Shown piece after piece: positions 3,105 through 49,464 of a DNA stretch of 64,000 bases (positions within the stretch are counted from its first letter, which is position 1; each line of letters starts with the position of its first letter). The position numbers and the translations under genes were made by a program. This DNA comes from an uncultured Gammaproteobacteria bacterium (lineage in GTDB: Bacteria > Pseudomonadota > Gammaproteobacteria > JAURND01): NCBI GenBank assembly GCA_963777715.1, contig CAVZRN010000008.1, positions 56,928 through 120,927 on the forward strand, written 5' to 3'. The notes beneath the pieces were generated by a model. That model saw only the letters and a program-made list of their open reading frames with translations, was not told the origin of the DNA and ran no database searches.

Positions 3105-3257
3105 TTGACGCAAAGACGCAAAGACGCAAAGACGCAGAGAAAAGATTAAAAACAAAAAAATAAAAAACTTAAAAAACAAATATTTAATATAAAAAAACAA
3201 AAATATTTTTTAAAAATGTTTTATGTTTTTCTCTGCGTCTTTGCGCCTTTGCGTCAA
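3105..3257. repeat. Palindromic element family A, copy 2.
   Basis: TTGACGCAAAGACGCAAAGACGCAAAGACGCAGAG ... CTCTGCGTCTTTGCGCCTTTGCGTCAA flanking an AT-rich core. Confidence 0.85.
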
Positions 3258-4573: not shown

Positions 4574-4698
4574 TTTGACGCAGAGACGCAAAGACGCAGA
4601 GAAAAACATAAAACATTTAAAAAATTATTTTTTATTTAATCTTTTGATGTTTTTTCTTTTTTTAATCTTTTCTCTGCGTCTTTGCGTCTCTGCGTCAA
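4574..4698. repeat. Palindromic element family A, copy 3.
   Basis: TTGACGCAGAGACGCAAAGACGCAGAG ... CTCTGCGTCTTTGCGTCTCTGCGTCAA. Confidence 0.85.
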
Positions 4699-16594: not shown

Positions 16595-16751
16595 ACTTGA
16601 CGCAGAGACGCAAAGACGCAGAGAAAAAATTAAAAAAAGAAAAAAACTAAAAAAACAAAAATTTAACATAAAAATACAAATAAAACCAAAAAATAAAAAT
16701 ATTTTTTTAAATGTTTTATGTTTTTCTTTGCGTCTTTGCGTCTTTGCGTCA
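16595..16751. repeat. Palindromic element family A, copy 4.
   Basis: CTTGACGCAGAGACGCAAAGACGCAGAG ... CTTTGCGTCTTTGCGTCTTTGCGTCAA. Confidence 0.85.
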
Positions 16752-16763
16752 AATTTTTTTGTT

Positions 16764-24508: not shown

Positions 24509-24791
24509 GATAGGCTCTCTTTAGTTAAAATTTGCGCTTATTCTACATAAAAAGAATTGTAAATCAAGTAAATAATTTTAATTTGATTCTAATTGGGGAT
24601 TTGCAGCTTGCCCACCACTGACGTTAACTAATGCACATTTACACCATCTTCCTCTTGTATCGTGATCTGCAAGCAGTATCTTTTTACCACCTTCATATTG
24701 CAAGTTTTTTAGCGGAATTGATTGCTGTATTGAATACTCATACTCATAGCATATCTCCTTATTGAGTTAGTGGTGGGCTTAGGAAATCGTA

Positions 24792-25007
24792 TTAGTCTTT
24801 TTTAAGCTTACCTACCCTCCACTTTTGTTCATTAGTTAATTGCTTTTCAGCTTGTATGCGTTGGTAAATTTCGTGGCGATGCACTGGCACTTCTGTTGGG
24901 GCGTCGATGCCAAGACGAACTTGGTTTCTTTTAACGCCAAGAACGGTAAGCGTAATCTCGCCACCAATTATAATTTTTTCGCCTGGTTTTCTGGTTAGAA
25001 TTAACAT
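24792..25007 (-). CDS. csrA: Carbon storage regulator CsrA family protein (71 aa), probably a paralog given its context.
   Basis: [52 protein letters not shown] is nearly identical in pattern to E. coli CsrA. Confidence 0.9.
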
Positions 25008-25325
25008 TCTTTATCTCCTCCTAAATAGTTGATAAATATAGTGTTTTTACAACTTTTAGTTGATTAGGTTTTAAAGACAAATTTCTAATAAAATTCTTTT
25101 TGCGTAGTTTATTACCCCCCTTTTTATAAAATTTAATCCACCGCCTATTTTTTTGTTACGATGGAGCATTGAATCGGGTACAATTTTATAGGCGCTGCTT
25201 TTTGCCACGATGGTTTCGGTAGCTTCTATTTTACTATTATGCATCATTGCATAATATATTGCAACATAGAATATAGCAGGGGAAAGGATTCTCTTGACCC
25301 CAACCTGTCTTATCAGGGAAATGTA

Positions 25326-26018
25326 ATGAATAAAACCAATACTTTGGCTAAGAATCTTAAGTCACTAATGCAGTTTAGGCATATTACTGAGTCTGATCTT
25401 GCGCGTGTAACTTGTGTTAGCCAACCTGTTATCAACAGGCTAGCAAAGGGGATCACCACCAATCCCAATGTTGATACGCTTCGACCAATTGCAAAATTCT
25501 TTAACGTTAGCATTGGTCAGCTAGTAGGTGATGAACGGTTATTCTTACCAGAGAATCTTATTTCCAGCGATGAGCCTATACTTGCCTCAAGCCTAATTGA
25601 AGTTCCCATTATTACTTGGGAAAGAGCTGCACAATGGCAGAATATTCCTGCGAAACAACAGATAGAGAAGTTTAAAAAGTTTATTCGCCTCGATGCTAAT
25701 TTGTCAGACTATGCCTATGCCTTACTCATTGAGGACAGCACAATGGAACCTACTTTCATGAAGGGAACATGTATCGTTATTGAACCAGAACTTGAGCCGG
25801 TTGATCGTGATTATGTGGTTGTTGTTTTAAAGGGGCAAAAAAAACCTATATTTAAACAAATACTTTTTAGCGGAGAAGAAGCCTTTTTAAAGTCACTTAA
25901 TCCAGACTTTGATACGCTTCAGACAACTAAAAATTGCAAGATAATAGGTGTTGCTGTGCAAGGACACATTAATTTAAAAGAAACCAGGAGTAATGAATAT
26001 GGAGTTAATGCACCGTAG
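25326..26018 (+). CDS. LexA/CI-like repressor: XRE HTH plus an S24 peptidase domain (Ser in DSTMEPT, Lys in FKQIL).
   Basis: Classic HTH (LAKNLKSLMQFRHITESDLARVTCVSQPVINRLAKG) and S24 motifs. Start at MNKTN, with an AGGGA Shine-Dalgarno about 8 nt upstream. Confidence 0.8.
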   Translation: MNKTNTLAKNLKSLMQFRHITESDLARVTCVSQPVINRLAKGITTNPNVDTLRPIAKFFNVSIGQLVGDERLFLPENLISSDEPILASSLIEVPIITWERAAQWQNIPAKQQIEKFKKFIRLDANLSDYAYALLIEDSTMEPTFMKGTCIVIEPELEPVDRDYVVVVLKGQKKPIFKQILFSGEEAFLKSLNPDFDTLQTTKNCKIIGVAVQGHINLKETRSNEYGVNAP

Positions 26019-26694
26019 TAGACAACAGTATAAATATTTTTACTTGCTTGCAATGATCTATACAACCATCATGGTCGCAGCAACGACCGTGGCATATAAG
26101 GTGGTACAAATAGGCCCATTTATAGCAACGAGCGCCTCTGTTGTTTTTCCTGTCACATTTACGTTAGGTGGAATTATATCTGAAGTGTATGGTTATGAAA
26201 TTTCAAAAAAATTGGTCTTTTCGTCTATATTTTGCGGGCTTTTATTTGCTGTTATTGTAAATAGTTGTATTTATTTGCCATCACCCCCGAATTGGCAAGG
26301 GCAAGCTGCCTTTACCACAACCTTGGGACACACGCTGCGTTTTGCAGTTTCTGGAACCATAGGAAGTTTAGTAGGAAGCTATATAAATATCTTTTCTGTC
26401 ACGCGCTGGAAGGCTTTAATGAAGGGAAAATATTTTCCTTTGCGCAGCTTTGGAGCATCCACCATTGGAGAATTTTGTCTGGTATTGATAACTACCTTGC
26501 TATCTTTTTTGGGTACTTTACCTACTAACATGGTGTTTAAAATGTTTCTGTTTGCTTATGTTTCAAAAATTTTATACTCGTTATTGTTACTTTGGCCGGC
26601 GGCCATCGTGGCGATAATGCTTAAAAAATCAGAAGGAATCGACATATTTGATAATGAAGGAAAAATAATTACACAAGAATATGACTATTCATGA
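25993..26694 (+). CDS. yhhQ: Queuosine-precursor (preQ0/preQ1) transporter, YhhQ/DUF165 family.
   Basis: FPVTFTLGGIISEVYGYE and its topology are colinear with E. coli YhhQ. Confidence 0.8.
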   Translation: MNMELMHRSRQQYKYFYLLAMIYTTIMVAATTVAYKVVQIGPFIATSASVVFPVTFTLGGIISEVYGYEISKKLVFSSIFCGLLFAVIVNSCIYLPSPPNWQGQAAFTTTLGHTLRFAVSGTIGSLVGSYINIFSVTRWKALMKGKYFPLRSFGASTIGEFCLVLITTLLSFLGTLPTNMVFKMFLFAYVSKILYSLLLLWPAAIVAIMLKKSEGIDIFDNEGKIITQEYDYS

Positions 26695-27212
26695 AGATAT
26701 TAATATTGGGAAATGGTGGTTCGGGTAAATCCTATCTGGCAAAACGACTAGCTGCTCTATTAACTTGCGAACCAATACATCTTGACAACCTATACTGGAA
26801 TCCTGGTAGTTGGATACACAATTCTAAGGATCAATGGGATACTGCCTTACTACAGTATTTACAAAAAGAAACTTGGGTAATGGAAGGCACGCCGATGCGT
26901 GACCTTTCTGTTAGAATAGCTCACGCCGATTTAATTGTTTTATTAGATACCGCCAGATATATTTGTATTTTAAGAGTTATCCGAAAGGGTATTGCAAATA
27001 TAATTAGGAAAAATAAACCCTATAATGATGGATGTCCTATTCGTGGACTAAGTCTACGAGCAATAAAGTGGGTATGGAATTACCCTTACAAAACAAGACC
27101 CATCATTCTATCTCAATTGGCTGCTGCTCAATCTAGCAAAAATGTGCTTTACCTAAAGAACAAACAAGAATCCGCGCTATTAATTAAAAATTTTTCTGTT
27201 TATTTATCTTAA
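26691..27212 (+). CDS. FlaR-like 'DNA topology modulation' protein, an adenylate-kinase-like P-loop kinase.
   Basis: GNGGSGKSYLAKRL P-loop, HLDNLYWNPGSW, and …WVWNYPYKTRP match the FlaR/topology-modulation family almost position for position. Confidence 0.8.
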   Translation: MKILILGNGGSGKSYLAKRLAALLTCEPIHLDNLYWNPGSWIHNSKDQWDTALLQYLQKETWVMEGTPMRDLSVRIAHADLIVLLDTARYICILRVIRKGIANIIRKNKPYNDGCPIRGLSLRAIKWVWNYPYKTRPIILSQLAAAQSSKNVLYLKNKQESALLIKNFSVYLS

Positions 27213-27726
27213 TCAGCTTTAACATATCCATCAATTTTCTTTCCTTGCGCACCTGATTTTCCGCAAAAGCCTTACCTATTTTAAATGCATCTTCTTGACT
27301 AAATTCTGTTATAAGCTTCATATTTTTGGCGAGATCATCTACTGTAGCTCGAAATTTCTTGGAAGTCCCTTTTTCACCATACACTATCACGTAGCTGTCT
27401 AGATTCCCCCTAAAATCTTGTAAGAGGAGCTTATATTTCGGTGCACATTTAACGGAAACAGCCAAGGTGGCTATAATCTTAACGTCTGCAGGTGAAAACC
27501 CATTTACTAATTGATCATCTTCGTAAATTTCAAGTGGAGTTAAAGGAACATTTGTATTTGTACCTACAATTTTAACAACAAGGCGATCCTCTGCTATATT
27601 TTTTCCTTTTTGCCAGCCAATGAGTTGGTAATTAAATTTTCTAGTTTCTTTTGCTTCTGCAAGTATTTTTCCAAAATTCTCTAAAATCCAGCTGACATAT
27701 TGGGTTAAGTTATTCTTGTTGGCCAT
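27184..27726 (-). CDS. Hypothetical protein (180 aa) with no recognisable motif.
   Basis: ORF only. Convergent with the flaR-like gene, with a short overlap. Confidence 0.3.
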   Translation of the reverse strand: MANKNNLTQYVSWILENFGKILAEAKETRKFNYQLIGWQKGKNIAEDRLVVKIVGTNTNVPLTPLEIYEDDQLVNGFSPADVKIIATLAVSVKCAPKYKLLLQDFRGNLDSYVIVYGEKGTSKKFRATVDDLAKNMKLITEFSQEDAFKIGKAFAENQVRKERKLMDMLKLIKINKQKNF

Positions 27727-28133
27727 ACTTAAGCTCTCCCTTATTCAAATATTCGTACCTTAAAGTGCAATGAGTATACCCACTTGGGTGACATTCTAAT
27801 TAACGTCAGTTACAGCTAAGCTTGTTTAGCCTGGATCACTAATAGCTTGCTCATCCCGGAGACAAATTTATGGTTTAACCTTGTGAATAGTTTCCCAAAG
27901 AGATTTATACTCTCGAGTTATCTTATGCAGTAAAGCCAACAGAAAATTTTCCCGCAGGGTAGTGGTGCCCACAGAACTTTTCATGCGTTAATCCTCCTCT
28001 CAAATAATTAAAGGGAGATTAAATTTTCTTGTACACCTTGTCAATATATGTTTATATATTAAAATAACCTAAGATTTATATTAAAATAGCATTTATCGCC
28101 AATTTATTTTTATAGATGAAAATTAAATGAAAA

Positions 28134-29036
28134 TTGCTAATTTTTACCGATTCCGTACTGGAAGGTAAACATCAAGATGATAGCATAATGAAAAGCTGGG
28201 ACTCTGAATATTACGATAAAAATTCCATTATGCAGTTTCGCACTGCAATGGAGATGCTTAAACAACTACACCTCAATGGCAACGAAGCTATTTTAGATAT
28301 TGGCTGTGGCAGTGGGAAAATTACTGCGGAACTTGCTAAAAAAACACGGCAACACGTTACTGGTTTAGACTTATCACCAGGCATGGTGCAATTTGCAAAT
28401 AAACATTATAAGGCGGAGAACCTATCGTTTGTCGTGGGTGATGTCACCAAAATGCGATTTAAACAGCAATTTGACGTGGCTGCATCCTTCTGGACTTTAT
28501 CTTGGGTAGAAAATCAACATTTAGCGTTACAAAATATTCTAAATAGTCTTAAAGACGGCGGCAAAATTTTTCTTATGTATCCTATGCGCCATGATGTATA
28601 CGACGTTGTAGACCAAGTCATTCTAAGACCGGCATGGTCAAGTTATTTCCACCATTTCAAACCAAGACCATTTGTTACTGAAGAGACATACCGTAGAACT
28701 TTGCAAGCATTGAATATCCCCTATTCCTGCAATAAAAAACAGCTTGTTTGTAAATTCAGTGATTATGGAGAAATGGAGAATTCAATTCGTAGTTGGATGC
28801 CCCATTTAGATAGAATTCCTGACACAAGAAAAAAATCATTGTTTCTAGCGGATGTTATTGAAGAATATCTTTTATCACGTGATAGTTCAGATTTCTCTAT
28901 GTATTTTAACGTACTAGAAATCACCGGAGTAAAAATTTCCTTGGAAAAAGAACTTGACGATAAGTCATCGCTGGTTATTGAGGATAATAAAGATAGGCCA
29001 TTTCACAAGATAGCGGGGAACCAAAACCCAACTTAA
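28134..29036 (+). CDS. Class I SAM-dependent methyltransferase (trans-aconitate methyltransferase Tam-like).
   Basis: SAM motif I (LDIGCGSGKIT), post-I acidic residue (GLDLS) and motif II. The start may be the internal MKSWD. Confidence 0.7.
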   Translation: MLIFTDSVLEGKHQDDSIMKSWDSEYYDKNSIMQFRTAMEMLKQLHLNGNEAILDIGCGSGKITAELAKKTRQHVTGLDLSPGMVQFANKHYKAENLSFVVGDVTKMRFKQQFDVAASFWTLSWVENQHLALQNILNSLKDGGKIFLMYPMRHDVYDVVDQVILRPAWSSYFHHFKPRPFVTEETYRRTLQALNIPYSCNKKQLVCKFSDYGEMENSIRSWMPHLDRIPDTRKKSLFLADVIEEYLLSRDSSDFSMYFNVLEITGVKISLEKELDDKSSLVIEDNKDRPFHKIAGNQNPT

Positions 29037-29150
29037 CAACAGGCTGGGTTTTTAGTGTCAATAAGCTTGATTTTTGGGTTCCCGCTGTCTTGCTTAATGC
29101 CTCTAAAAAACTAAGAGCGGCGGGAATGACAACGGGAGAGTATGTGCCAT
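29037..29150 (-). repeat. Partial copy (5' half) of MITE-like family B, in reverse orientation.
   Basis: Reverse complement matches the first ~110 nt of the 19972 and 45171 copies. Confidence 0.7.
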
Positions 29151-29330
29151 GCTTCATGTCGTCCTTGGCGATGTGTGCATAGGTTAGCCCACAAGGGGAG
29201 AAGGAAAAAATTGGAGCACTATTGTAAGTTTGTGCAATTACTTAAGGTAGTGCCATTGAGTTCAGGGATGACAAGAAATAAGTTATACGCCAAAACCCCC
29301 AATCTCAAACGCGGTGAGCAGTTACCTTTT

Positions 29331-29810
29331 TTATTTCGGATATTCTAAATTTTTTTTAGTGGCGCGGCACAACGTTTCAAGATACCTCGCCGCTTCAAGG
29401 CGTGCCATGGGTAGGTTATGATCTAAGTAGTTACCACACTCTATCGGCGAGCAACCAGGCACTTTTCCTTTGAAATCTGCAATGTGTTCAAACAGCTCTA
29501 TAACAGCAGGTAATAGCTCCCTACTTTTATGAAACCCATTGATGACCCAATAAAATCCAGTGCGACACCCCATAGGGCCAAAATAAATCGTGCGCTTGCC
29601 CCACACGCGATGAAAGCGCAAAAAACTAGCGCCTATATGTTCAATCGTATGCACCTCCGCCATGTTTATCACTGGCTCTCGATTGGGAGCCTTCATACGT
29701 AGATCATACGTCGTCACTGGATGACCTGCCACCTCGTCAATGCGTGACACATATACACCTGGCAACAACTTTTCGTGATCGATACAAAAGCTAGCAATTT
29801 TTTTTTGCAT
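29331..29810 (-). CDS. luxS: S-ribosylhomocysteine lyase LuxS.
   Basis: HTIEH, PMGCRTGFY and ECGNY motifs, colinear with E. coli LuxS. Start at MQKKIASF. Confidence 0.9.
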   Translation of the reverse strand: MQKKIASFCIDHEKLLPGVYVSRIDEVAGHPVTTYDLRMKAPNREPVINMAEVHTIEHIGASFLRFHRVWGKRTIYFGPMGCRTGFYWVINGFHKSRELLPAVIELFEHIADFKGKVPGCSPIECGNYLDHNLPMARLEAARYLETLCRATKKNLEYPK

Positions 29811-29812
29811 AA

Positions 29813-31237
29813 TTAAGCACTGTTTTTTAATCGTGCACCATGTTCGGCCAAAACATGCGCCACACACCCCGTCACTCGCTTACCCGCATCTATGTGCAAA
29901 AATTCATTCGGCCCATGCGCATTGGAATGTGGCCCAAGCACACCGGTTATCATGAATTGCGCGTCAGGAAATTTTGCACCTAGCATGTGCATAAAGGGAA
30001 TAGAGCCGCCTTCGCCGAAATATATGGCAGGTTTGCCAAAGTATGCTTGTGATGCAGTGGTCATGGCGTCCGCCAACCACGGTTGCAATTCCGGCGCATT
30101 CCAACCAGAAGCCAGGCTCCTTGGCGTCAACGTTACCTTCGCTTGATAGGGCGGAGAATCCTCTAAAATTTTCTTCAACGCCGCCATTCCTTTTTCTGGA
30201 TCGCACATAGGAGGAACACGCATCGATAACAACAGGGATGTTTTAGGGCGCAATACATTGCCTGCATCCGCCAGCTTTGGAATATCATCCGCACCAGTAA
30301 TAGCTAGCGCCGGTTTCCAAGTACGATTGATAATCATCTGATCATAGGGAACATTTGCCGGTTTTACGCCACTAACCCAAGGATATTCTAACCATACAAC
30401 ATCACCCATCACTTCCGCGGCGTGTTTTGCCTCCTTAATACGACCCGATGGAATATCAACGTGCAATTCTTTAACTAACACTTCACCCGTGGTTTCATTT
30501 TCAATACGACTTAATAATTCACGCATAATACGCAAACTGCAAGGGACAACGCCGCTGCTGGCGCCAGAATGCACGCCCTCGGTTAACACTTCTACTGTCA
30601 ATGTCGCATTAATCAATCCCCGCAACGACGTCGTGCACCACAATTGCTCATAATTTCCTGAACCAGAATCCAGGCAAATAACTAATTCTGGACTACCAAT
30701 TTGTGGCTTTAAATGTTCGACATAGGCTGGCAAATCGTTACTACCGCTTTCTTCACTGGCTTCAATTAAGATGACACAACGCGCATGGGAAATGCGTTGT
30801 TGTTTTAATGCCTTAATGGCAGTCAGTGCTGCAAACACCGCATAACCATCATCAGCGCCGCCACGCCCATACAGGCGTCCGTCTTTTAACACTGGCTTCC
30901 ATGGATCTAACCCCTCATGCCAACCGACCATTTCCGGCTGCTTATCCATATGCCCATATAAAACCACTGTCTTAGCAGTATTATCTCCAGGCACCTCAAT
31001 TAACAATAAGGGAGTGCGCCCTGGCAGGCGATGAACGGTTAGTTGGATATCCGGCAGATTTTGCGCATAACACCAATTAGTTATTAGTTCCATGGCTTGA
31101 TCGATGTAACCGTTCTTTCGCCAGTCTGGATCATATGCAGGAGATTTACATGGTATTTCAATGTACTTACTAATAGTTGGGATAATGGTTTGATCCCAGG
31201 TTTGATTGATGAACTGCTGAGCTTGCTGAGAATTCAT
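29813..31237 (-). CDS. M20-family metallopeptidase (dipeptidase-like, 474 aa).
   Basis: M20 metal-binding motifs (HMDKQP, GRGGADDG, EASEESGS). Confidence 0.75.
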   Translation of the reverse strand: MNSQQAQQFINQTWDQTIIPTISKYIEIPCKSPAYDPDWRKNGYIDQAMELITNWCYAQNLPDIQLTVHRLPGRTPLLLIEVPGDNTAKTVVLYGHMDKQPEMVGWHEGLDPWKPVLKDGRLYGRGGADDGYAVFAALTAIKALKQQRISHARCVILIEASEESGSNDLPAYVEHLKPQIGSPELVICLDSGSGNYEQLWCTTSLRGLINATLTVEVLTEGVHSGASSGVVPCSLRIMRELLSRIENETTGEVLVKELHVDIPSGRIKEAKHAAEVMGDVVWLEYPWVSGVKPANVPYDQMIINRTWKPALAITGADDIPKLADAGNVLRPKTSLLLSMRVPPMCDPEKGMAALKKILEDSPPYQAKVTLTPRSLASGWNAPELQPWLADAMTTASQAYFGKPAIYFGEGGSIPFMHMLGAKFPDAQFMITGVLGPHSNAHGPNEFLHIDAGKRVTGCVAHVLAEHGARLKNSA

Positions 31238-33918: not shown

Positions 33919-34605
33919 ATGTCCCTACCCGATAAATATACCACACCCCACCCACGACTGATTAAGAGTTTCGCCATCCGCGCTGGGCGCATGAGTACGC
34001 GCCAACAACAGGCACTGACGCAAAACAACTACCTGCTTGACCCTGGCAGCCCAATTGATTGGCAGCGTGAGCTCCCCTCCCCTTCACCATCAGTTACCCT
34101 GGAGATCGGCTTTGGCATGGGGCACTCCCTCATCCAACACGCACTTGCCGCGCCCAATAGCTACTTCATTGGCATGGAGGTATTTTCCCGTGGCATCGGC
34201 GCCCTGCTGGCGGAAATAACCACACATAACCTCAGCAACATTCGCGTACTGCAAGGCGATGCGGTGGAACTCATCCAACGCCTCATTCCGAATAATTCAC
34301 TGGATACTATCCAAATTTTTTTCCCCGACCCCTGGCCAAAACGCCGACACCACAAACGCCGCCTGATACAACCAGCGTTCGTGCAATTAATAGTGGAGAA
34401 ATTAAAGCCCGGCGGCCACTTGCACCTGGCCACCGATTGGGAAGACTATGCACTACACATGATGCGCGTGTTATCTGACAATAAGGAATTATCCAACACG
34501 GCGGGGGCGGGTAAATTTACTACTCAACGTATGGGACGACCGTTGACGAAGTACGAACAACGTGGGCAGCGTTTAGGACATGGCGTGTGGGATTTTGCCG
34601 TTTAG
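33919..34605 (+). CDS. trmB: tRNA (guanine-N7)-methyltransferase TrmB.
   Basis: LEIGFGMGHSL, IFFPDPWPKRRHHKRR motifs. Confidence 0.9.
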   Translation: MSLPDKYTTPHPRLIKSFAIRAGRMSTRQQQALTQNNYLLDPGSPIDWQRELPSPSPSVTLEIGFGMGHSLIQHALAAPNSYFIGMEVFSRGIGALLAEITTHNLSNIRVLQGDAVELIQRLIPNNSLDTIQIFFPDPWPKRRHHKRRLIQPAFVQLIVEKLKPGGHLHLATDWEDYALHMMRVLSDNKELSNTAGAGKFTTQRMGRPLTKYEQRGQRLGHGVWDFAV

Positions 34606-35990
34606 AAAAATCGGTTAACCACTGAATAAGCATATTCCGTTACCGTGGCATGACTACTGCCACTGATAGCGCCACCCAAGTAATAGGTGTTCTGCTTACC
34701 TTGCAGTTGATGAAAGCGTTTGCGTATACCTGTCTTCACATCTTCCGCCAGGAAATAGGGGGTATATTCTGCCCAATGAAACGTATCGACCCATTGCAAC
34801 ACCTTCGCTCCAAATTCTTGTTGCAACATTTTTTCACTATTGCTGTAAAACGTCGGCGGAAATTCATGGTGAGCAACATTGGTAACTCCAGTGTACAACC
34901 ATATATCGCCCTTCACCCAACCTTCGGGATAAAAACTCTGCAAACACTCACGATAATTATCCGCATCGGTTAAATAAGGATCCATCAATGAATACAAGCC
35001 GTTGTGCGGCAATCCTTGCGCTAAAAAGCTCACCTTCCAACCAGGGGCATAATGTACTTTCTCAAAAACGCTGCGCTCCTCAATCGTCGCATCGAGGAAT
35101 TTCAACGCTTGTGCCGGTGAGCAGGTCACAAACAATTTATCAAACGTTAAGGTTTGATCATCCAACACGACGTCTACAGTTTGTTCATGTCGATGCACCG
35201 CTTGAATGTTTTGCTTATACAACACGTGATGTTGTTTAGCCACTCGATTCCATAACTCTTGATAGCCCTCCCTTACAAAACCCAGATGACCACTAATATA
35301 GCGTAATGGAAAGTGTAATAATTGATAAAAGAATTTGATGACTTCAAATGCAGATATATCGGGACGGATATCGGGATTACTAAACGCAGCGGTGCTGGCA
35401 AACATCTTCATCACATCACCTACCAGGGAAAGCCGTTGTTGGTCTACCCACGTTTCATACGGCAAACATAACTCGGCGGTTAAGTCATCGGATAACTCAT
35501 GTCCTGGTTTTTCTAACGCACGATAGCGCCAAAAACAACGCGCCAATTTAAAACTATCAGAAAAAAGCGCAGGCCACTGACGCAGCGGATAACCTAAACG
35601 ATATTTGTCAAAGTCAATGATGGCCTTATGTTGTTTTAAATTATGAATAATTAAAAATACGAGTAGATCTCTACGCCTAATCGGTGTGTCAACATTTCCA
35701 CGCGTATTGGTTTTGCCAACATGTAGACCATAGCGATGAAACAGTCGGAATAATTTTCTTGATCCGACCGGCGCAAAGCTGCCCATCTCATAAACAACAT
35801 CACCCTTCTCACCGGGGTAACGTAAACTCATCGACATGCCGCCGACACGGTTGTGTCTCTCAATCACGGTAATATTTTGATAGCCGCGTTCTTTTAAAGC
35901 TTCTGCAGCGGCCAATCCGGAAGGTCCCGCGCCGATAATCCCAATCCTTAAGTCCTTAGCGTATCGTAGTGATTTATCTTTATGCCACAT
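34602..35990 (-). CDS. FAD-dependent oxidoreductase (amine-oxidase/PPOX-like Rossmann fold), 462 aa. Paralog of 36212-37693.
   Basis: N-terminal dinucleotide-binding motif IGIIGAGPSGLAAAEAL…ERHNRVGG. Colinear with the neighbouring paralog at roughly 40-45% identity. Confidence 0.6.
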   Translation of the reverse strand: MWHKDKSLRYAKDLRIGIIGAGPSGLAAAEALKERGYQNITVIERHNRVGGMSMSLRYPGEKGDVVYEMGSFAPVGSRKLFRLFHRYGLHVGKTNTRGNVDTPIRRRDLLVFLIIHNLKQHKAIIDFDKYRLGYPLRQWPALFSDSFKLARCFWRYRALEKPGHELSDDLTAELCLPYETWVDQQRLSLVGDVMKMFASTAAFSNPDIRPDISAFEVIKFFYQLLHFPLRYISGHLGFVREGYQELWNRVAKQHHVLYKQNIQAVHRHEQTVDVVLDDQTLTFDKLFVTCSPAQALKFLDATIEERSVFEKVHYAPGWKVSFLAQGLPHNGLYSLMDPYLTDADNYRECLQSFYPEGWVKGDIWLYTGVTNVAHHEFPPTFYSNSEKMLQQEFGAKVLQWVDTFHWAEYTPYFLAEDVKTGIRKRFHQLQGKQNTYYLGGAISGSSHATVTEYAYSVVNRFF

Positions 35991-36211: not shown

Positions 36212-37693
36212 TCAAAAATGCTTATCCACTAACTGATAGGCATAATCAATTAACATAGAATGGCCAGGCCCTGACAAAAGTTCGGTCACAAAATAGGTAT
36301 GTTTTAATCCTTGCAACGACTCAAACAGATCATACATCCCATTTTTTGTATCTTCACAATCAAAATGAGCGTTATACTGTGACCAATACGCCTTATCGAC
36401 CCAACTGATCACCTCAGCGCCAAAATGTTGCTGCAATAGTTCGGCTGAGTGTTGCATAACCGCTTCAACTCCTTGTTTTTCTGTGAAACCCAGCATGGTG
36501 GTATATAACCATACCCCATCTTCTACTTCCCCTTCCGGAATAAAGCCATACAACTGCGGCGGAACAGCGCTATTTTCCATTTGATCGGTAAAGATATACA
36601 TAGCATCGTGCGGTAATCCTTTAGCTAAGAAGGCAGCCCTCCACCCAGGGGAGTGCCTAACCTTGGAAAGTAGGGTTTTTTCTTGTGGAGAAGCATCGAT
36701 ACATTGCGCCACTGAATCGGGCGAACACGCAATAACTAATCGGTCAAAGGTGTGTTTTTCGCTATCCCAATAGAGATGAATTTCGTCGCCGGTGCGCTCA
36801 ATTTTTTCTATGTTTACGCCGCATAATACTTGATGATTTTTGGCGACTCGATTCCATATTTCCTGGTAGCCTTCACGCACCGGTAAAAATATGCCCCTTA
36901 TATACCTTGGGTGCCTATTCAATAGATCATAGAATACATTCTTAAATCCGTGTATTAATGCGTGATCTGGCGTTGCCTCATACACTGCGAAATTTAACGC
37001 GCCAAACAACGTTCGCAACAGGCGATCTAATAGCTTAAATCGACACACATTGAACCACTCCAACATTGGTATAGACACTGGTCCCAACGGCTGTGTGTTA
37101 GCCAATCCCGGCTTAGCCAGGCGACGATAGCGATAAAGCCAGGGAATAAATTTTACAATGTCCAGGCATAACGTCGGTAATTTCCTGAGGGGCATCCCCA
37201 GGATAGGATAGGTTAAAAAATCCGCAACGTATTGCTTCTCCTGCATACAATAAATACGAATGGGGGCAGGATGATTTAAAGAAATTCCCTTTCCCAGATG
37301 CAATCCGTATTTTTTTATAAATGCAAATACCTTACTGGTGCCAAACGGCTGAATACTGCCCATGTCATAGGTGATTGTATGTTGTGAAGCAGTAGCTTCC
37401 TTGGGGTATTGCCTACTTAGGGACATACCGCCAACGTGTTTGGTTTTTTCAATGACGGTGATATTTTGATAGCCTTTTTCTTTTAAGGCTTCTGCGGTAG
37501 CCAGACCGCCGGGGCCGGCTCCTATGATGGCAATTCTAGAGTTTGTATTAGATTGATGGGCTAAATGCGGACTGCGGCGCGGTTGCGGGTTGCGGGTTGC
37601 GGGTTGCGGGTTGCGGGTTGCGGGTTGCGGGTTGCGGGTTGCGGGTTGCGGGTTGCGGGTTGCGGGTTGCGGGTTATTATATCTTAGCTTCAT
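36212..37693 (-). CDS. FAD-dependent oxidoreductase paralog (493 aa) with an N-terminal heptapeptide repeat (NPQPATR)x5 encoded by a 7-nt microsatellite.
   Basis: IAIIGAGPGGLATAEAL…EKTKHVGG. The repeat is inserted directly after the conserved MKLRY… N-terminus that is shared with the paralog. Confidence 0.6.
   Translation of the reverse strand: MKLRYNNPQPATRNPQPATRNPQPATRNPQPATRNPQPRRSPHLAHQSNTNSRIAIIGAGPGGLATAEALKEKGYQNITVIEKTKHVGGMSLSRQYPKEATASQHTITYDMGSIQPFGTSKVFAFIKKYGLHLGKGISLNHPAPIRIYCMQEKQYVADFLTYPILGMPLRKLPTLCLDIVKFIPWLYRYRRLAKPGLANTQPLGPVSIPMLEWFNVCRFKLLDRLLRTLFGALNFAVYEATPDHALIHGFKNVFYDLLNRHPRYIRGIFLPVREGYQEIWNRVAKNHQVLCGVNIEKIERTGDEIHLYWDSEKHTFDRLVIACSPDSVAQCIDASPQEKTLLSKVRHSPGWRAAFLAKGLPHDAMYIFTDQMENSAVPPQLYGFIPEGEVEDGVWLYTTMLGFTEKQGVEAVMQHSAELLQQHFGAEVISWVDKAYWSQYNAHFDCEDTKNGMYDLFESLQGLKHTYFVTELLSGPGHSMLIDYAYQLVDKHF
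37577..37675. repeat. Heptanucleotide microsatellite (GCGGGTT)n: 13 perfect units plus 1 imperfect, inside the 5' coding region of the 36212-37693 gene.
   Basis: Read directly from the sequence. The unit length is not a multiple of 3. Confidence 0.95.
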
Positions 37694-37909
37694 TTTATTA
37701 TATCCTCAAGCGATAAAAAAACTATCCTGCCCACCTCTTTAATTTAACGGACAAGCATCACCTCGCACCAAATTTAAAGCACAAACAAACAAGCGAGAGT
37801 GACACTAATCAAATGCCCTGCTCATATAAATACATGCACTTTAACCATAGCTTTAAGTTAAATATAGTTCAAATTTGATGAAATGAGAAAGAAAAATGTA
37901 GGATTATGC

Positions 37910-38555: not shown

Positions 38556-40454
38556 TTATTGGCCGACTAGAGTTGAAGTATAGGCTTGATCGGCTCGATT
38601 TGGTTTATCGGGATAACGTAGGCGCAATCGACCATGTTCAACCATGGGAGTAAGAAAACGTGCACGTACCCCATCGGGATTGCGTTGTAGTAACTCAGCC
38701 AGCTGTTTTCTTGATAGCCAATGGTTACGGCATAATTCCTGGATGATCTGTTCCGTCTTTTTTGGGGATAATCGCTGATTTTCCCTGGCAGGTTTGGCTA
38801 TTTTGTTAAGATTAGTCAGTTCTTCAGGGCTAAGTTCGTGCTTATATACTGACCCAGGGTCCTTATGTACGGAGTCCCCTTCGTTATGTACGGAGTCCCC
38901 TTCGTTATGTACGGAGTCCCCTTCGTTATGTACGGAGTCCCTTTTGCTTATTGCCAATCGATAGCGGCTTCCACGTGCTCGTCCCTCTTGAGCAAGCGCG
39001 CCTTTCGCCACTAACCCTTGTAAGATGCGGGTGATGTCTGCCGTGTGATTGCCGGTAATTTGTCGCATACGGGCATTATCTACTGAGCTTTCGATATCAG
39101 CAGTTACCAGTACTTGCACCTCTTGAGTATTAAAACTTTTAAAGTCACTACCAAAGCACAATTGGAGTCGGTGAAGGGAATCGTCAGGTATAAGGCTAAC
39201 CATAGGTAACTGCCACAATACCCGATCAGGATGGACTTGATCGGTAACCAGGGGAGAGCGCCAGTGTTGAGAATTCCAACCCTTGAAGATTTTGTCCACG
39301 CCTGAGCCAGCTTTTTCAGCTGCACCAAACATCATGAACATGGTCTGTAGTGTTTTATTACGACACTCACTCACATTGCCACGCAGCAATTGATCTAAGG
39401 AGATCAATAAAGAACCAGGGTTCGAGAAATTAAAGCCCTTGAGGTGCTTTTCTACGATGATACCACCCGCCCCGTAGTGATCGGCATGGATTAACGTATT
39501 CACCAGTGCTTCGCGGATGGCTTCATGAACTTCAGTTTCACCTTTGCGCAGCAGGTCAGATTTCAGTTGAAATGGCAGTTTTATATCAGCAGCCAGCCGC
39601 TGGACAACACGAAGATAAAATTGAAATAGATTAGTGTTCCAAGTGCCATCAATGGTCAGCCGGTCAGTCCAACGGACAGCTGGGTCATCAGAGAGTTTTT
39701 CCCGATAATCGACATGGAAACTTGGAACGGCTTCACGAATAGTATCATCGCGGCCAAACATAAGCATGCCTGCTACAGTCAGCCCTTCCTGCCCAGTTTT
39801 ACGATCCCGTCGCCAACCGCCAAGCTTAGTTAGTAATCCCTGATCGTCTTCGCTTAAGTAGGGATGAGTTGGTTTGTGGGAAGCCAATCGCTGGCGATAT
39901 TGGTGCAAGCTGGATAAATCAATGTCGGACAAATCAAAATTTTCTAGTATTCGGCTGTCCACGGACTCTTCCGAACGATCTGAGAGCATACGACCCACTT
40001 CTTGCTCAGTACAATGATAGTCGCCTTCGTGATTACGGCGATAAGTACCAGTTAGTGGATTCTGATTGAGATAAACAGGACGTTGATAGCGGCTGGCTTG
40101 CGGCACGCGGATAGCTAATATAGTCTTTTCACCGTATCCCATTTCAACAATATCCGTATCGTTAAGCAAGTTGGTACTGGTTTTCCCACGGTTGTTGATA
40201 GTATCCCAAAAGGTTTTCTTGAGTTTTCCTGTATCGACGACGCCACTTACTGTACCGTCATCTTCAACGCCTAATAAAATAATCCCACCATGGGTATTGG
40301 CCATTGCGCTATAAGTTCCCCATAAACTTTTAGGCAAGCCACCTTTTGTGGATTTAAATTCCATGTCCCCACCTTCTTCCCATCTTAGGTGAGCCAAGAT
40401 ATCTAATGGATTAATGATGTTAGGCATTTTCATATACTCATTGGCGACGGACAA
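38556..40454 (-). CDS. Schlafen-like AlbA_2 (divergent AAA-4) plus HATPase_c_4 domain protein with a C-terminal wHTH-like region. Often misannotated as a RecG-like helicase or transcriptional regulator.
   Basis: HATPase_c_4 signature (EAIREALVNTLIHADHYGAGGII) and an N-terminal AlbA_2-like region. Contains a (SVHNEGD)x4 repeat. Confidence 0.6.
   Translation of the reverse strand: MSVANEYMKMPNIINPLDILAHLRWEEGGDMEFKSTKGGLPKSLWGTYSAMANTHGGIILLGVEDDGTVSGVVDTGKLKKTFWDTINNRGKTSTNLLNDTDIVEMGYGEKTILAIRVPQASRYQRPVYLNQNPLTGTYRRNHEGDYHCTEQEVGRMLSDRSEESVDSRILENFDLSDIDLSSLHQYRQRLASHKPTHPYLSEDDQGLLTKLGGWRRDRKTGQEGLTVAGMLMFGRDDTIREAVPSFHVDYREKLSDDPAVRWTDRLTIDGTWNTNLFQFYLRVVQRLAADIKLPFQLKSDLLRKGETEVHEAIREALVNTLIHADHYGAGGIIVEKHLKGFNFSNPGSLLISLDQLLRGNVSECRNKTLQTMFMMFGAAEKAGSGVDKIFKGWNSQHWRSPLVTDQVHPDRVLWQLPMVSLIPDDSLHRLQLCFGSDFKSFNTQEVQVLVTADIESSVDNARMRQITGNHTADITRILQGLVAKGALAQEGRARGSRYRLAISKRDSVHNEGDSVHNEGDSVHNEGDSVHKDPGSVYKHELSPEELTNLNKIAKPARENQRLSPKKTEQIIQELCRNHWLSRKQLAELLQRNPDGVRARFLTPMVEHGRLRLRYPDKPNRADQAYTSTLVGQ
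38857..38940. repeat. 21-bp tandem repeat (CCTTCGTTATGTACGGAGTCC), about 4 copies, in-frame within the Schlafen-like gene.
   Basis: Read directly from the sequence. Encodes SVHNEGD x4. Confidence 0.9.
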
Positions 40455-41310: not shown

Positions 41311-41421
41311 CTTGACGCAAAGACGCAGAGAAAAGATTAAAAACAAATAAAGATATTTTTTTTAAATTCTTTATGTTTTATCTTTTATGTTTTCCTCTGC
41401 GTCTTTGCGTCTCTGCGTCAA
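41311..41421. repeat. Palindromic element family A, copy 5.
   Basis: CTTGACGCAAAGACGCAGAG ... CTCTGCGTCTTTGCGTCTCTGCGTCAA, between ileS and yggS. Confidence 0.85.
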
Positions 41422-44384: not shown

Positions 44385-44762
44385 TCAAATTCTTTTTTGT
44401 TGTAGTTTTTGGCTTTTAATAAGAATTTCTGCCGGGATATGTAATCCCGTATTAAGGCGACGTATCATTGCTAACGTTAAAAGCCGTTTCTTATTTAAAA
44501 TTTCGGACACTCTGGCACGAGAACCCAGGTACTTTTGCAATTCTTTTCGATCTATGCCACGACTTTCCATCCAGTATTGAATGGCATCGATAGGATCTGG
44601 AAAATCAATTTTATGGTGTTTTTCTTCGTATGCTTCAACAAGCATAGTCAAAATTTCCAATTTATCCCCTTGCGGAGTATTTGGTTTAGCATCAAATAAT
44701 TCTTCAATTTCGGCCAATGTTTTTAAATAGTCTTTATGTGATTTAATTAATTTAATCTGCAT
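44385..44762 (-). CDS. higA: HigA-family antitoxin (HTH addiction-module antidote).
   Basis: Characteristic HigA pattern (…LVEAYEEKHHKIDFPDPIDAIQYWMESRGI…VSEILNKKRLLTLAMIRRL). Confidence 0.8.
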   Translation of the reverse strand: MQIKLIKSHKDYLKTLAEIEELFDAKPNTPQGDKLEILTMLVEAYEEKHHKIDFPDPIDAIQYWMESRGIDRKELQKYLGSRARVSEILNKKRLLTLAMIRRLNTGLHIPAEILIKSQKLQQKRI

Positions 44763-45474: not shown

Positions 45475-48400
45475 CTAGGTTGTTGGTGGTTTTCCAGCTG
45501 ATCCACCGGTATTTTTTAGTTTTCCTGTTTCCGGTGGTGGGTCAGACGGCACAACAGTTGGTTGTTGCAGTGGGACGCCTGCAGCAACCTTACTCTTACC
45601 ACCAAAAAGCGTACTCCACATGGTTGGAGATTTTGGTTGCTGTACCTGAGCAGCTTGCTTGGAGGAAACAGCAGATAGATTTGGCAAACTACCCTTCACT
45701 TTTATATCCGCCTTCGGCGCAATTTTCAGCTTAATTGCTATCGCAGCAAGTAGCTCTTCTCGAGCGGCCGGAGCGCAAGACCCACATTGGACAAGCATAT
45801 CCAATAATTTTTCACTGGTTTTTTGTCTGTCCTCAGCGGTAGATTTTTTATCCTTTTCTATACCAGCTCGTATCATTCCTTTAGCCGTTTCAACCAAGGC
45901 ATCCACCAAGCCCTCACGTGCCTTCTGTACTAATTCTGGTTTACCAAGGGTACGGTAATCATGCTGTAAACCTAATACCGCCCTCTGTAACAAGCTTTTT
46001 GCACAAAACCCGTTGAGTACTGGCTCTTCTTGTTCTTGTGTAAGCTGTCGGTCGATCAGACCCAATTCATCAAACGCCATTATTAGTTTTGCGTGCTTAA
46101 TGTCGTGTGGCTTCTTACCACTTAAAAGTCGCAATGTAATAACTAATTCTTCTGGTTGTCTTAATTTACCGTGCGCATCGCAGAAAATCTCGCTTGCATC
46201 TTTATAAGATAATTTATTAAACACTGGATTAGCAGCAATTAACTCTGCTGGATTTCCACCTCCCTGCTCAATAGCAACGTACAACGTTACCCACTGCGCA
46301 GCTTCTGCTACATTTATCCCCTTAGCTATTTCTAAAAATATCTCTATTTTTTCTTTATCGCGTAATTTACCTTCACTATTAAACAATACTACTTTAAATC
46401 CATTTAGGCCAATTTTTTCGTACAGCGGGTGGAAAACAACTTTGGAAAATAGTGGGAAATTATCTTTTGTTAGCAACGCCTTTAATTCCTGCAAATTTGA
46501 CTCTTTATTTGCATTGGCGTAATTAATAATAGCCGTTAACGCTTTCTCTACTGCCTCTGAACTATCAGACAAAGGGACTAATGAACCCATTAACTCATAA
46601 AAATTTGCTGCTCTTGCTTCATCAGCCTCATCTAAAAAATCAGCAATACTCAATACAGATACAGTCGATTTAGTATTATTTATCTCGGCATAACGCTTTG
46701 GCCCGAGCAGCTGTTTTAAAAGAGGCGCAACCTTTACTGCTTCAGTCCACATAGATGATTGCGCAGCAATGCTATTCAGTACTATATTAGTATCCTTATC
46801 GCCAGTAATAACTCCCGCTGTTTGTCGACAAAATAGACTATACAAGCCGAATGCTTGCTCATTTGTGCGTAATGATTCAATCGTTTTGCGTATCGCATTT
46901 GTTGTTTTAGATTCAGAAACGCTTCCCAAATTAGCCTGATATTGTTTCTGCACGTTTACTTTAGCATTAATAACAGGCTCAATATCTACCAGCTTAATTT
47001 TTGGCTCCCTGGGCGACAAGGGTGGCAGCTCTTCGGCTTGTAGCATGAGCTCTCTCGAATCCTTACCCATTTTTTTTACCATCATATCAGCCAGGTCATC
47101 AACAAAGGCCTGACGAGAACCAAATGCATCATCACCAAGTTGCCGCTTATCCATTTCTCGGATTTGTGCATCACACGCAGCAACGTCAGCAGCTAATCTC
47201 ACCAACTCTGCTAATAAAGGTTCCGGCAACCATACGATGTGATGTTCGTTTTTATAGCGGGTAACCGCCGTCTCAAATGCCTGAACAACCAATGGCGATG
47301 ATTTATATATTTGACAAAGTGCGCTAAATGTTTCCAGGCTTAATGACTGACCTTCTGCTTCCATATTTTTTAGTGTAGCTATCATACCCCTTGTAAACAA
47401 TATCGATGGGAAGAATGGCCCTAGATCAGCCCTATCTACTTCGTCAAGCTCCTCATTAACTCCCTCTACCTTCATACCCTTAAAAATAGTTTGGTATAAT
47501 TTAAATAATTTTTCCGGAGGAGTTGATTCACTCAGACCCATAAAATCTGTCAATGACTGCCCTGTTAATTCATAACCATAGGTGTCGCGCAAAATATCAA
47601 TACATCTCTGTTTTTGCTCTCTAAAACCATGAACCGCAAGCTCAAGAACGCCCTGTTTAAATTTGTATTTCATCTCAGCTAGAACATCTCCCTTCTCCTG
47701 CTTCTTTTCCTTCTTAGGTGATGCCGACGGTTCCGGTTCTGACGGTAGTTCAGAAACAGAACCTTCTATTATTACCATGGATTCTGATTGCCTACGTTTT
47801 GACCGAGATTTTGACATTTCAGCTTCTAATGCCTCAGTTTCTGACATAACCGCCGCTTTTTCTTTTTTGGATAGTTTTTTCAAAACGTAGTTAATTAGCC
47901 ATTGGAAAAATCGTACCATACGCCATTCAGACTGAGTATTTTTTTCAGGTGAAATATCCTCATCTTGCTGTAGCGCTTGACTTTCCCCTCCAGCAGGTGA
48001 CCCCGATGGGGAATTTTTTCCTTCTTTTTTAACTTGCTTTTCTTCTCTGGCTTTCTGTTGCTGCGCCTCACTTTCTAGCTGTTTCGCATATTTTTCAACC
48101 GGTTTTTTTGCGTTCTTTAATGCTTTAGCCAAGGCCTCCTTACCAGGGAAATTATCCCATAATTTAGCCAACGCCCGATCAGTATTAGCTTCTACTCGTT
48201 CACTTAGGCTGTCTATATAACTCTCATCACCTTCAAGCAAGAACCTCTCACTTTCATCGATACCTGCAACTCTCCACAAAGCGATTAAACCATCACGTAA
48301 TTTTTTATCTGCTGCCTTTATATTTTCCTCAGTTGGTTTTTTTTGACTAATCACACCCATATAAACATTAACACTTTTAGTTAACTCGTCGGCGACCTTG

Positions 48401-49464
48401 GCAATTCTTTCATTGCGAGCAATTGTTGCTAGCCTTTTCTTATTGGTTTTCCAAGTATCTACTGCACTCTTTAAATCTCCTCTAAATTGCGCTTCATCAG
48501 CTTCATTAAAAAATGGGACAAACCGCACTAAGACAGCATTGGTTAAGCGCTTTAAAGCAGCACGCTGTTCCTCTTCGGGTAATTCTCCAATGCTAGGTTT
48601 ACCTATAATTTTTTGTACTTGTTCTTCGCTCAAGCCAGCCTTGTTGCATAAACTAATAATACCAGACTCTATTTCACTTATTTGCTTATTTAACTGTTCC
48701 GATTCCAATTCAGCAGGTTGAGCGATAGCAGCCAATTTTTTCGAGTCAGATGATATATCTGCTCGCAGTGGATTAAATATTGGTTGTCTATAAATAAATG
48801 GATTTAGTGATTCTTCAAAGAATTCTCGTGAGGGGTTTGGTTTCTGATCCGTGATACCCAATTGGGAATATAATAGTTGACGTAGTTTGCTTTTCTCTGC
48901 ACCCTCGCGCGTTAGAACAACTACTAAGTCCATATTCACACCAGCAATTTGGCTACTTGCCTGGATAAATGTAAGTTTGGAGGATTTTTCGTCTCCCAGA
49001 TCACGTAATTGTTGCGCCAATTTAATTTCTTCTGGGGGGTAATAGCTATCCTTCGAGAATAATGTTTGGATAGATACTTCATCTTTTTCTGTCAAGTATT
49101 GATCTAACGACTCGTTAAAGTTGTTTAGTCGCTCTTGCTCCTGGCGCGCAGACGCTGCCTTAATATCAGCATCTAACTCTTTTTGAGCCTGTTGTATATC
49201 CTGCCCAAGCATACCTAACTCTACGTGAGTGATTTGCTGTTCTACTTTTTGCTGTTCTCGGGTAAGCGGGGCATTTCCTTCAAGCCGATCCTTTGCCCGA
49301 TTACTTGCTTCTTCCTGCCTTGCGTGTCGCTTTTTGTCCTTTTTTGCTTGCTTTACACGCTCTACTGCACCCATGCCTTCCTCAATTTTTTCTTTACCCT
49401 TTCGAATTAGATTTTCGCCTTTGTCGATTTTTTTGCCAGACATACATTTCCCCTTAAGTATCAA
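45475..49464 (-). CDS. Very large hypothetical protein (1329 aa): K/E/Q-rich, predicted extensive coiled coil, disordered Pro-rich C-terminus, no enzymatic motif. Effector-like.
   Basis: Composition and heptad-like periodicity in the translation. Flanked by MITE B on the 3' side and by the IS/repeat cluster on the 5' side. Confidence 0.5.
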   Translation of the reverse strand: MILKGKCMSGKKIDKGENLIRKGKEKIEEGMGAVERVKQAKKDKKRHARQEEASNRAKDRLEGNAPLTREQQKVEQQITHVELGMLGQDIQQAQKELDADIKAASARQEQERLNNFNESLDQYLTEKDEVSIQTLFSKDSYYPPEEIKLAQQLRDLGDEKSSKLTFIQASSQIAGVNMDLVVVLTREGAEKSKLRQLLYSQLGITDQKPNPSREFFEESLNPFIYRQPIFNPLRADISSDSKKLAAIAQPAELESEQLNKQISEIESGIISLCNKAGLSEEQVQKIIGKPSIGELPEEEQRAALKRLTNAVLVRFVPFFNEADEAQFRGDLKSAVDTWKTNKKRLATIARNERIAKVADELTKSVNVYMGVISQKKPTEENIKAADKKLRDGLIALWRVAGIDESERFLLEGDESYIDSLSERVEANTDRALAKLWDNFPGKEALAKALKNAKKPVEKYAKQLESEAQQQKAREEKQVKKEGKNSPSGSPAGGESQALQQDEDISPEKNTQSEWRMVRFFQWLINYVLKKLSKKEKAAVMSETEALEAEMSKSRSKRRQSESMVIIEGSVSELPSEPEPSASPKKEKKQEKGDVLAEMKYKFKQGVLELAVHGFREQKQRCIDILRDTYGYELTGQSLTDFMGLSESTPPEKLFKLYQTIFKGMKVEGVNEELDEVDRADLGPFFPSILFTRGMIATLKNMEAEGQSLSLETFSALCQIYKSSPLVVQAFETAVTRYKNEHHIVWLPEPLLAELVRLAADVAACDAQIREMDKRQLGDDAFGSRQAFVDDLADMMVKKMGKDSRELMLQAEELPPLSPREPKIKLVDIEPVINAKVNVQKQYQANLGSVSESKTTNAIRKTIESLRTNEQAFGLYSLFCRQTAGVITGDKDTNIVLNSIAAQSSMWTEAVKVAPLLKQLLGPKRYAEINNTKSTVSVLSIADFLDEADEARAANFYELMGSLVPLSDSSEAVEKALTAIINYANANKESNLQELKALLTKDNFPLFSKVVFHPLYEKIGLNGFKVVLFNSEGKLRDKEKIEIFLEIAKGINVAEAAQWVTLYVAIEQGGGNPAELIAANPVFNKLSYKDASEIFCDAHGKLRQPEELVITLRLLSGKKPHDIKHAKLIMAFDELGLIDRQLTQEQEEPVLNGFCAKSLLQRAVLGLQHDYRTLGKPELVQKAREGLVDALVETAKGMIRAGIEKDKKSTAEDRQKTSEKLLDMLVQCGSCAPAAREELLAAIAIKLKIAPKADIKVKGSLPNLSAVSSKQAAQVQQPKSPTMWSTLFGGKSKVAAGVPLQQPTVVPSDPPPETGKLKNTGGSAGKPPTT

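Follow-up and report, generated by a model that had tools for sequence, protein, structure and literature searches.

A heptanucleotide repeat array in the translated 5' end of a gammaproteobacterial flavoenzyme gene: a candidate ON/OFF switch

The DNA analysed here, referred to below as the window, is a 64,000-nucleotide (64-kb) stretch of contig CAVZRN010000008.1 from an uncultured Gammaproteobacteria bacterium (GenBank assembly GCA_963777715.1, contig positions 56,928 to 120,927). The gene of interest is an open reading frame (ORF) on its minus strand, which encodes a flavin adenine dinucleotide (FAD)-binding protein of 493 amino acids (aa) and carries a heptanucleotide tandem array close to its start codon. 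Its neighbours are LuxS, an M20 peptidase, AsmA, tRNA-Gly(CCC), TrmB, an adjacent paralog, an HTH_3 protein, a Schlafen/AlbA_2 protein, YggS, and IleRS; with housekeeping genes throughout the window, the locus is chromosomal. The ORF opens at the first start codon that follows a stop, and an identical product is recorded in NCBI and ENA (P0001). Coordinates are collected in Table 1.

Table 1. Features of the flavoenzyme gene, its repeat array, and the adjacent paralog (positions counted from the first nucleotide of the window).
Feature	Position	Strand	Details and basis
ORF of 493 aa, FAD-binding, amine-oxidase superfamily	36212..37693	-	ORF list; Pfam; PDB sequence match; AlphaFold2; Foldseek
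Shine-Dalgarno-like GAGGA	37703..37707	-	9-nt spacing to ATG; sequence read
ATG start	37691..37693	-	sole in-frame ATG/GTG/TTG upstream of the FAD-binding motif; sequence, ORF list
13 perfect AACCCGC units	37585..37675	-	plus strand GCGGGTT; translated N(NPQPATR)x4 NPQP; direct read and script
G-rich template strand (GGGTTGC)n with G3N1-7 quadruplex motif	37587..37675	+	motif scan
Partial AACC, irregular GCG, decayed units CCGCAGT (37577-37571) and CCGCATT (37570-37564)	37564..37584	-	sequence read
TAG stop	37561..37563	-	reached at n mod 3 = 0 (e.g., 9, 12, 15); in-silico copy-number series
TAA stop	37548..37550	-	reached at n mod 3 = 2 (e.g., 8, 11, 14); in-silico copy-number series
GAGPGG (GxGxxG) dinucleotide-binding motif	37505..37522	-	residues 58-63, start of the conserved fold; alignment A1
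Adjacent paralog	34602..35990	-	462 aa, without repeat, N-terminus ...SLRYAKDLRIGIIGAG; ORF list, alignment

Tandem Repeats Finder reports the array at 37581-37675 with a period of 7, 13.6 copies, 100% matches, and a score of 190. Read along the minus strand, the sequence passes from the codons ATG AAG CTA AGA TAT AAT into (AACCCGC)x13 and then through AACC, GCG, CCGCAGT, and CCGCATT to TAG. The initial annotation of this locus had counted about 14 tandem copies, 13 of them perfect, which agrees with the 13 perfect units plus a partial and two decayed ones. Two of its details, however, need correction: the array follows six residues (MKLRYN) rather than five (MKLRY), and its translation comprises four full NPQPATR heptads and NPQP instead of five heptads. 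The array begins 18 nucleotides (nt) after the ATG and forms codons 7-37 of the ORF. No other perfect simple repeat in the window comes close to it in length: a scan for such repeats gives 3-unit octamers, (CCA)5, and (CA)6 as the next in size. The 14-mer unit dimer AACCCGCAACCCGC occurs 12 times with at most 2 mismatches, every time within the array (shuffle mean 0.43). The G+C content of the unit is 71% vs ~43-45% in the surrounding region. All three coding-strand frames of the array are free of stops and encode the same cyclic peptide; the array therefore never ends translation itself, and only the downstream frame matters.

As for the origin of the array, CCGCAGT and CCGCATT each share 5 of 7 positions with the rotated unit CCGCAAC and are the eroded 3' edge of the microsatellite. 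Because of these decayed units, growth in place from a local proto-repeat seems a better explanation than insertion of foreign DNA. Family alignment A1 comprises 22 sequences, namely, the target and 21 homologues including the adjacent paralog, and none of the 21 homologues has the repeat array. Of the earlier description of a lineage-specific insertion, the first half is thus upheld as far as this alignment reaches, and the second gives way to in-place growth. The presence of 13 identical units in a gene whose nearest homologues are only 36-44% identical implies recent and ongoing turnover.

The array is concluded to be translated, because the sole start codon and a ribosome-binding site lie upstream of it and no in-frame start lies downstream. 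Between the array (37580) and the GxGxxG motif there is no in-frame ATG, GTG, or TTG (the codons from array to motif are CAA CCG CGC CGC AGT CCG CAT TTA GCC CAT CAA TCT AAT ACA AAC TCT AGA ATT GCC ATC ATA GGA), and no purine-rich ribosome-binding site was found ahead of the ATT, ATC, or ATA codons downstream of the array. These results make it barely credible that translation starts downstream, with the array being 5' untranslated and its copy number having no effect on the protein. Some homologues do begin one residue before RIAIIGAG (MRIAIIGAG in P0020), which makes a start near ATT (I53) viable in principle, and gene callers often run ORFs through stop-free repeats, as is probably the case for two unrelated proteins mentioned below (P0029 and P0032). 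The good GAGGA-9 nt-ATG arrangement upstream of the array, however, speaks against such a start, as does the N-terminus of the relatives. In every homologue only 1-20 residues precede RIAIIGAGP (22-member alignment), and several members share an (L)RY-x4-RI N-terminus (SLRYAKDLRI in the paralog, MRYSKELRI in P0009); the target reads MKLRY, the array, and NTNSRI. Since MKLRY matches the LRY pattern of the relatives, the codons upstream of the array appear to be ancestral coding sequence, and the array appears to have grown inside a short N-terminal tail. The earlier placement of the repeat in the translated 5' coding region is confirmed in this way, no alternative start having been found, including near 37560. 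Around the start codon, the sense mRNA has unusually little structure (−25.6 kcal/mol vs −34.4 kcal/mol for shuffles; z = +2.4), with 200 of 200 shuffles folding at least as well.

The gene was rebuilt in silico with 8 to 19 units, and the full-length protein was obtained only for n = 10, 13, 16, and 19, any other copy number giving a product of 34-57 aa. Steps of 3 units retain the frame and steps of 1 or 2 units truncate the product, which bears out what had been predicted from the unit length. OFF alleles cannot yield active enzyme, because the next in-frame Met lies past the GxGxxG motif. With n = 13 and an open frame, the sequenced genome is inferred to be in the ON state.

The interpretation favoured here, with moderate confidence, is that the array is a hypermutable simple-sequence repeat in the translated 5' end of the gene and behaves as an ON/OFF switch. 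Slipped-strand mispairing during replication would add or remove units at a rate far above that of point mutation, and a population would reversibly mix ON cells (n = 10, 13, 16, and so on) and OFF cells, as is the case for neuO of Escherichia coli K1. The structural case for such a switch is complete and makes the gene a candidate for phase variation; the term phase-variable remains an inference from structure, because no evidence of copy-number variation was obtained.

In neuO, which is carried by the CUS-3 prophage of E. coli K1, (AAGACTC)n lies in the 5' coding region, and translation is full length only when n is divisible by 3; across 64 genomes the number of repeats ranges from 3 to 53, with 65.6% OFF, and length variants amount to 7% of the cells within one culture (PMC13001214). 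Both genes have a 7-nt unit at the 5' end of the ORF, a translated N-terminal heptad tail, full-length protein at every third copy number, and arrays in a similar size range, with 13 units in the target against 3-53 in neuO. NeuO, however, is a capsule O-acetyltransferase and the target an FAD enzyme, and the unit sequences differ. Moreover, neuO is prophage cargo acting on a surface structure, whereas the target is chromosomal and probably cytoplasmic, and switching has been measured for neuO and is presumed for the target.

In Haemophilus influenzae, heptanucleotide repeats occur both in promoters and within ORFs and vary from strain to strain (PMC2651432). Those in the hmw1A/hmw2A promoters and (AACAACC)n in or near TonB-dependent receptor genes resemble the present array in having 7-nt units in 13-38 copies, in varying among strains, and in affecting expression or frame (PMC2651432). 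In contrast to the target, the hmw repeats lie in promoters and not in the coding frame, the genes are those of surface adhesins and receptors, and H. influenzae has many such loci, compared with one seen in this window. Coxiella burnetii has 7-bp variable-number tandem repeats that are polymorphic among strains, among them the heptanucleotide arrays ms23 and ms24 (3-8 and 7-27 units, respectively); these serve as typing markers, and the paper describes no ON/OFF role (PMC1488860). Given neuO and the H. influenzae loci, a 7-mer is not unusual in this role, contrary to what had been supposed at first. The 7-mer repeat as such is not new; the novelty of this candidate lies in its gene class and lineage. 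Among the papers searched, none was found on an AACCCGC heptamer array in bacteria or on the NPQPATR peptide.

According to Pfam, the protein matches Amino_oxidase (PF01593) with 47.2 bits (gathering cut-off 19.8) as well as NAD_binding_8, and NCBIfam gives matches to the Rossmann motif only. The best PDB sequence match reported by phmmer is 2b9w (E 1.7e-16). An AlphaFold2 model built from the 22-sequence alignment has a mean predicted local distance difference test (pLDDT) value of 86.4 and a predicted template-modelling (TM) score of 0.85; residues 1-45, the repeat tail, have pLDDT <50, and the fold starts at residue 53. The array-encoded N-terminal tail is accordingly predicted to be disordered. 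Foldseek against the PDB also ranks 2b9w ("CLA-producing fatty acid isomerase from P. acnes") first, with E 1.9e-27, TM 0.83, and 20% identity, followed by CpaO, putrescine oxidase, NicA2, and monoamine oxidases. Hidden Markov models and structure prediction thus agree with the initial annotation in that the 493-aa product is an FAD-binding protein, and they place it in the amine-oxidase superfamily with 2b9w as the closest solved relative by both sequence and fold.

Residues G58, A59, G60, and G63 are invariant in 22 of 22 sequences of the alignment, and the target has all 25 of the 25 invariant family columns, so that the gene looks functional and not decaying. The adjacent paralog is indeed a repeat-free comparator, as initially proposed, but by sequence comparison an old one: it is 39% identical to the target, and in the alignment its 38% falls below the 41-43% of P0002-P0005. 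A role of the two flavoenzymes in a defence system was considered and rejected, PADLOC giving Rossmann-level matches only.

The substrate of the enzyme is probably an unsaturated fatty acid or a related lipid. The polyunsaturated fatty-acid isomerase of Propionibacterium acnes (2b9w) is the best sequence and fold match of the enzyme part, and homologues of the target lie near lipid genes; identity to it is only 20%, however, and amine oxidases are the next-best folds. A lipid or fatty acid is therefore a best guess, and a 2b9w-like isomerase activity is putative at this level of identity. Among the homologues, P0007 adjoins a cNMP-binding (cyclic nucleotide monophosphate-binding) patatin phospholipase, P0018 is flanked by two such phospholipases near an AMP-binding/acyltransferase protein, and P0013 lies within a cluster of the polyunsaturated fatty acid (PUFA)/polyketide type, with a ketosynthase, two FabA domains, a condensation domain, and a phosphopantetheinyl transferase. 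These recurrent lipid-gene neighbourhoods (L122, L123-L124, and L125-L126) suggest a lipid-modifying enzyme family without prior characterisation.

The highest-scoring solved structure for the window's enolase is 3tqp, the C. burnetii enolase (PMC6585157). This single protein comparison gives a weak hint that the lineage might be a Coxiella/Legionella-like gammaproteobacterium, in which case the polymorphic 7-bp repeats of C. burnetii would count in favour of the proposed switch. A stronger version of the favoured interpretation, in which a fatty-acid-modifying flavoenzyme would be toggled stochastically as a selected contingency switch on lipid metabolism while the diverged paralog stays constant, in a Coxiella/Legionella-like and probably host-associated bacterium, is regarded as doubtful.

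Several observations weigh against switching. Contingency genes usually encode surface structures or restriction-modification systems, and a cytoplasmic metabolic flavoenzyme is atypical among them. Several loci per genome are the usual company of such repeats, and there is no second such array in the 64 kb. The ON state in a single genome is a one-in-three chance expectation and therefore little informative. As for other alleles, the protein search returned the sequence identical to P0001 and then homologues of at most 44% identity; P0001, YggS, and TrmB form singleton clusters among ~15 billion proteins, with one genome of the species on record. The exact 5' junction sequence has 0 matches in metagenome contigs. 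The organism was sighted only once more, in run ERR11523676, through a Logan contig of 1.5 kb that carries YggS without reaching the array locus; none of the papers searched mentions this run. Finally, the heptamer occurs elsewhere as (NPQPATR)n in the termini or linkers of unrelated proteins, often decayed, and such arrays can thus persist as merely tolerated coding sequence.

The protein search returned ~30 such proteins with (NPQPATR)n in N-termini or linkers, among them LipB (six), MutL (two), FliD, ABC ATPases, and an E2 acyltransferase. The genome scan, which included one genome per species and required at least 4 units, gave at least 120 stretches of (AACCCGC)n in many phyla, mostly intergenic. 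In a symmetric analysis of array positions, 50 of the arrays among the matches listed lie just beyond the 3' end of a gene and 22 just ahead of a 5' end. Within genes, 20 are at the 5' end, 3 at the 3' end, and 18 in the middle; a further 16 are far from any gene, and 22 are at contig edges. Among the same matches only 6 of 135 arrays reach 13 units, the target array being among the longest. In viral contigs the heptamer has 4 stretches, and five control heptamers of the same composition have 8, 6, 0, 13, and 4, respectively. An apparent bias of the heptamer towards gene 5' ends turned out to be caused by stop-to-stop ORFs running through stop-free arrays. The idea of a special pan-bacterial element was rejected on the mostly intergenic location, the lack of a clean 5' bias, and the comparable frequency of the controls; the heptamer is one of many ordinary C-rich microsatellites.

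These data bear directly on the possibility, less probable than a switch, that the array is a neutral by-product, i.e., a microsatellite that has grown in a disordered tail, with in-frame lengths tolerated and OFF variants purged as loss-of-function, and no adaptive switching. The tracts in LipB, MutL, E2 acyltransferase, and FliD, the scattered and mostly intergenic arrays, the equally frequent control heptamers in viral contigs, and the single array in a gene of atypical class are all consistent with it. A perfect 91-nt array in a conserved and intact gene, however, would shed frequent null mutants, and long purifying selection usually leaves interrupted units, as in the other proteins, whereas here 13 of 13 are perfect. 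The by-product explanation differs from the favoured ON/OFF switch only in selection for switching, a point that sequence alone cannot decide.

Among the proteins with the heptad (P0023-P0053), one MutL (P0028) has a nearly perfect array in its linker, and the arrays at the N-termini of the six LipB proteins are decayed. In mutL, slippage of an out-of-frame repeat could turn a mutator state on or off. The N-terminal tracts of P0029 and P0032 look like untranslated arrays absorbed by gene callers. Multiple arrays per assembly are found in Bacteroidetes bacterium Skiv_18 (at least 7 loci) and Syntrophobacteraceae co168_41 (at least 3).

Among the matches listed in the genome scan, 22 of 123 array clusters lie <200 nt from a contig end, so arrays commonly break assemblies. 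This difficulty for assemblers raises the question of whether assembly alone produced the array, or at least its copy number. Such an artefact is very unlikely here, as the 95-nt array is shorter than common read lengths, lies inside a 277-kb contig, and preserves the reading frame across its length, and comparable arrays are present in many independent genomes.

The template strand of the array contains a canonical quadruplex motif, with 10 overlapping starts at 37587-37650 ((GGGTTGC)13, G3N4); the two strands of the 64 kb hold no other. Judging from the motif, slipped intermediates could gain stability from a quadruplex, or transcription could be impeded by it. Instability driven by a hairpin was considered and rejected, as the DNA of neither strand folds into a stable Watson-Crick hairpin: the C-rich strand has little pairing even with RNA parameters, and the hairpin of −51 kcal/mol that the G-rich strand seems to form relies on G-U pairs under those parameters. 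It is improbable that the array serves mainly at the protein or DNA level, either as a length-tunable disordered tail modulating activity or assembly, or through a template-strand G-quadruplex modulating transcription. The predicted disorder of the tail, the sole G3N4 motif of the window, and the weakly folded 5' mRNA are in line with such a role. No homologue, however, has or needs a comparable tail, the quadruplex rests on the motif only, no Watson-Crick hairpin is available on either DNA strand, and effects of this kind would add to the frameshift consequence and not replace it.

If the ON/OFF switching is true, the repeat-controlled genes would gain a metabolic flavoenzyme from a little-known Coxiella/Legionella-like lineage, and a second natural heptad-tail system would stand beside neuO. 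If, beyond that, the selected contingency switch were true, repeat-driven phase variation, known from surface and restriction genes, would reach a cytoplasmic metabolic enzyme, and this in a lineage for which such variation has no prior description. For annotation, the ON/OFF state of the gene in any assembly would hang on one repeat count, and it would be wrong to write off frameshifted copies elsewhere as pseudogenes. Bacterial genomes commonly hold C-rich heptamer microsatellites, and gene callers can read through a stop-free 13-unit array, so that part of the published N-terminal (NPQPATR)n extensions may in fact be arrays that are not translated.

A second coding repeat lies two genes upstream of the target, in the ORF at 38556-40454 (minus strand), which encodes a protein with Schlafen/AlbA_2 and HATPase_c_4 domains. 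A perfect 21-nt tandem repeat of 3.8 copies at 38863-38941 encodes (DSVHNEG)n in frame; it may vary in length, and changes would retain the frame.

Five intergenic palindromic elements were also found (1782-1925, 3105-3257, 4575-4698, 16597-16752, and 41312-41421). Their layout is TT(GACGCARA)x3, an A-rich spacer of 65-95 nt with conserved ATGTTTTATGTTTT, and (TYTGCGTC)x3 AA. Each begins at most 20 nt after the stop of a minus-strand gene (6 nt in 3 of 5) and ends before the start of the next gene. The 16-mer of the element has 20 matches, compared with 0 in shuffles, and no Rfam family matched the element. Its arm occurs in 46 metagenome contigs, mostly as single octamer arrays in high-GC DNA, and is paired in L132, L136 (39% GC), L135, and L162. 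The element may be a terminator, an mRNA-stabilising hairpin, or similar to repetitive extragenic palindromic (REP) sequences or miniature inverted-repeat transposable elements (MITEs).

Further along the window, a 125-aa HTH_3 protein (44385-44762, minus strand) matches the first 125 positions of the PADLOC model PD-Lambda-2_B (E 6e-43), beside it lies a 1329-aa ORF (45475-49464, minus strand) without a Pfam or PADLOC match, and a Tn5-type transposase is located at 49954-50982; together they may be a defence or mobile island. The G+C content is lower at 24000-30000 (0.37-0.40 vs ~0.45 elsewhere in the window), and GC skew stays below zero over almost all of the window, consistent with most genes lying on the minus strand.

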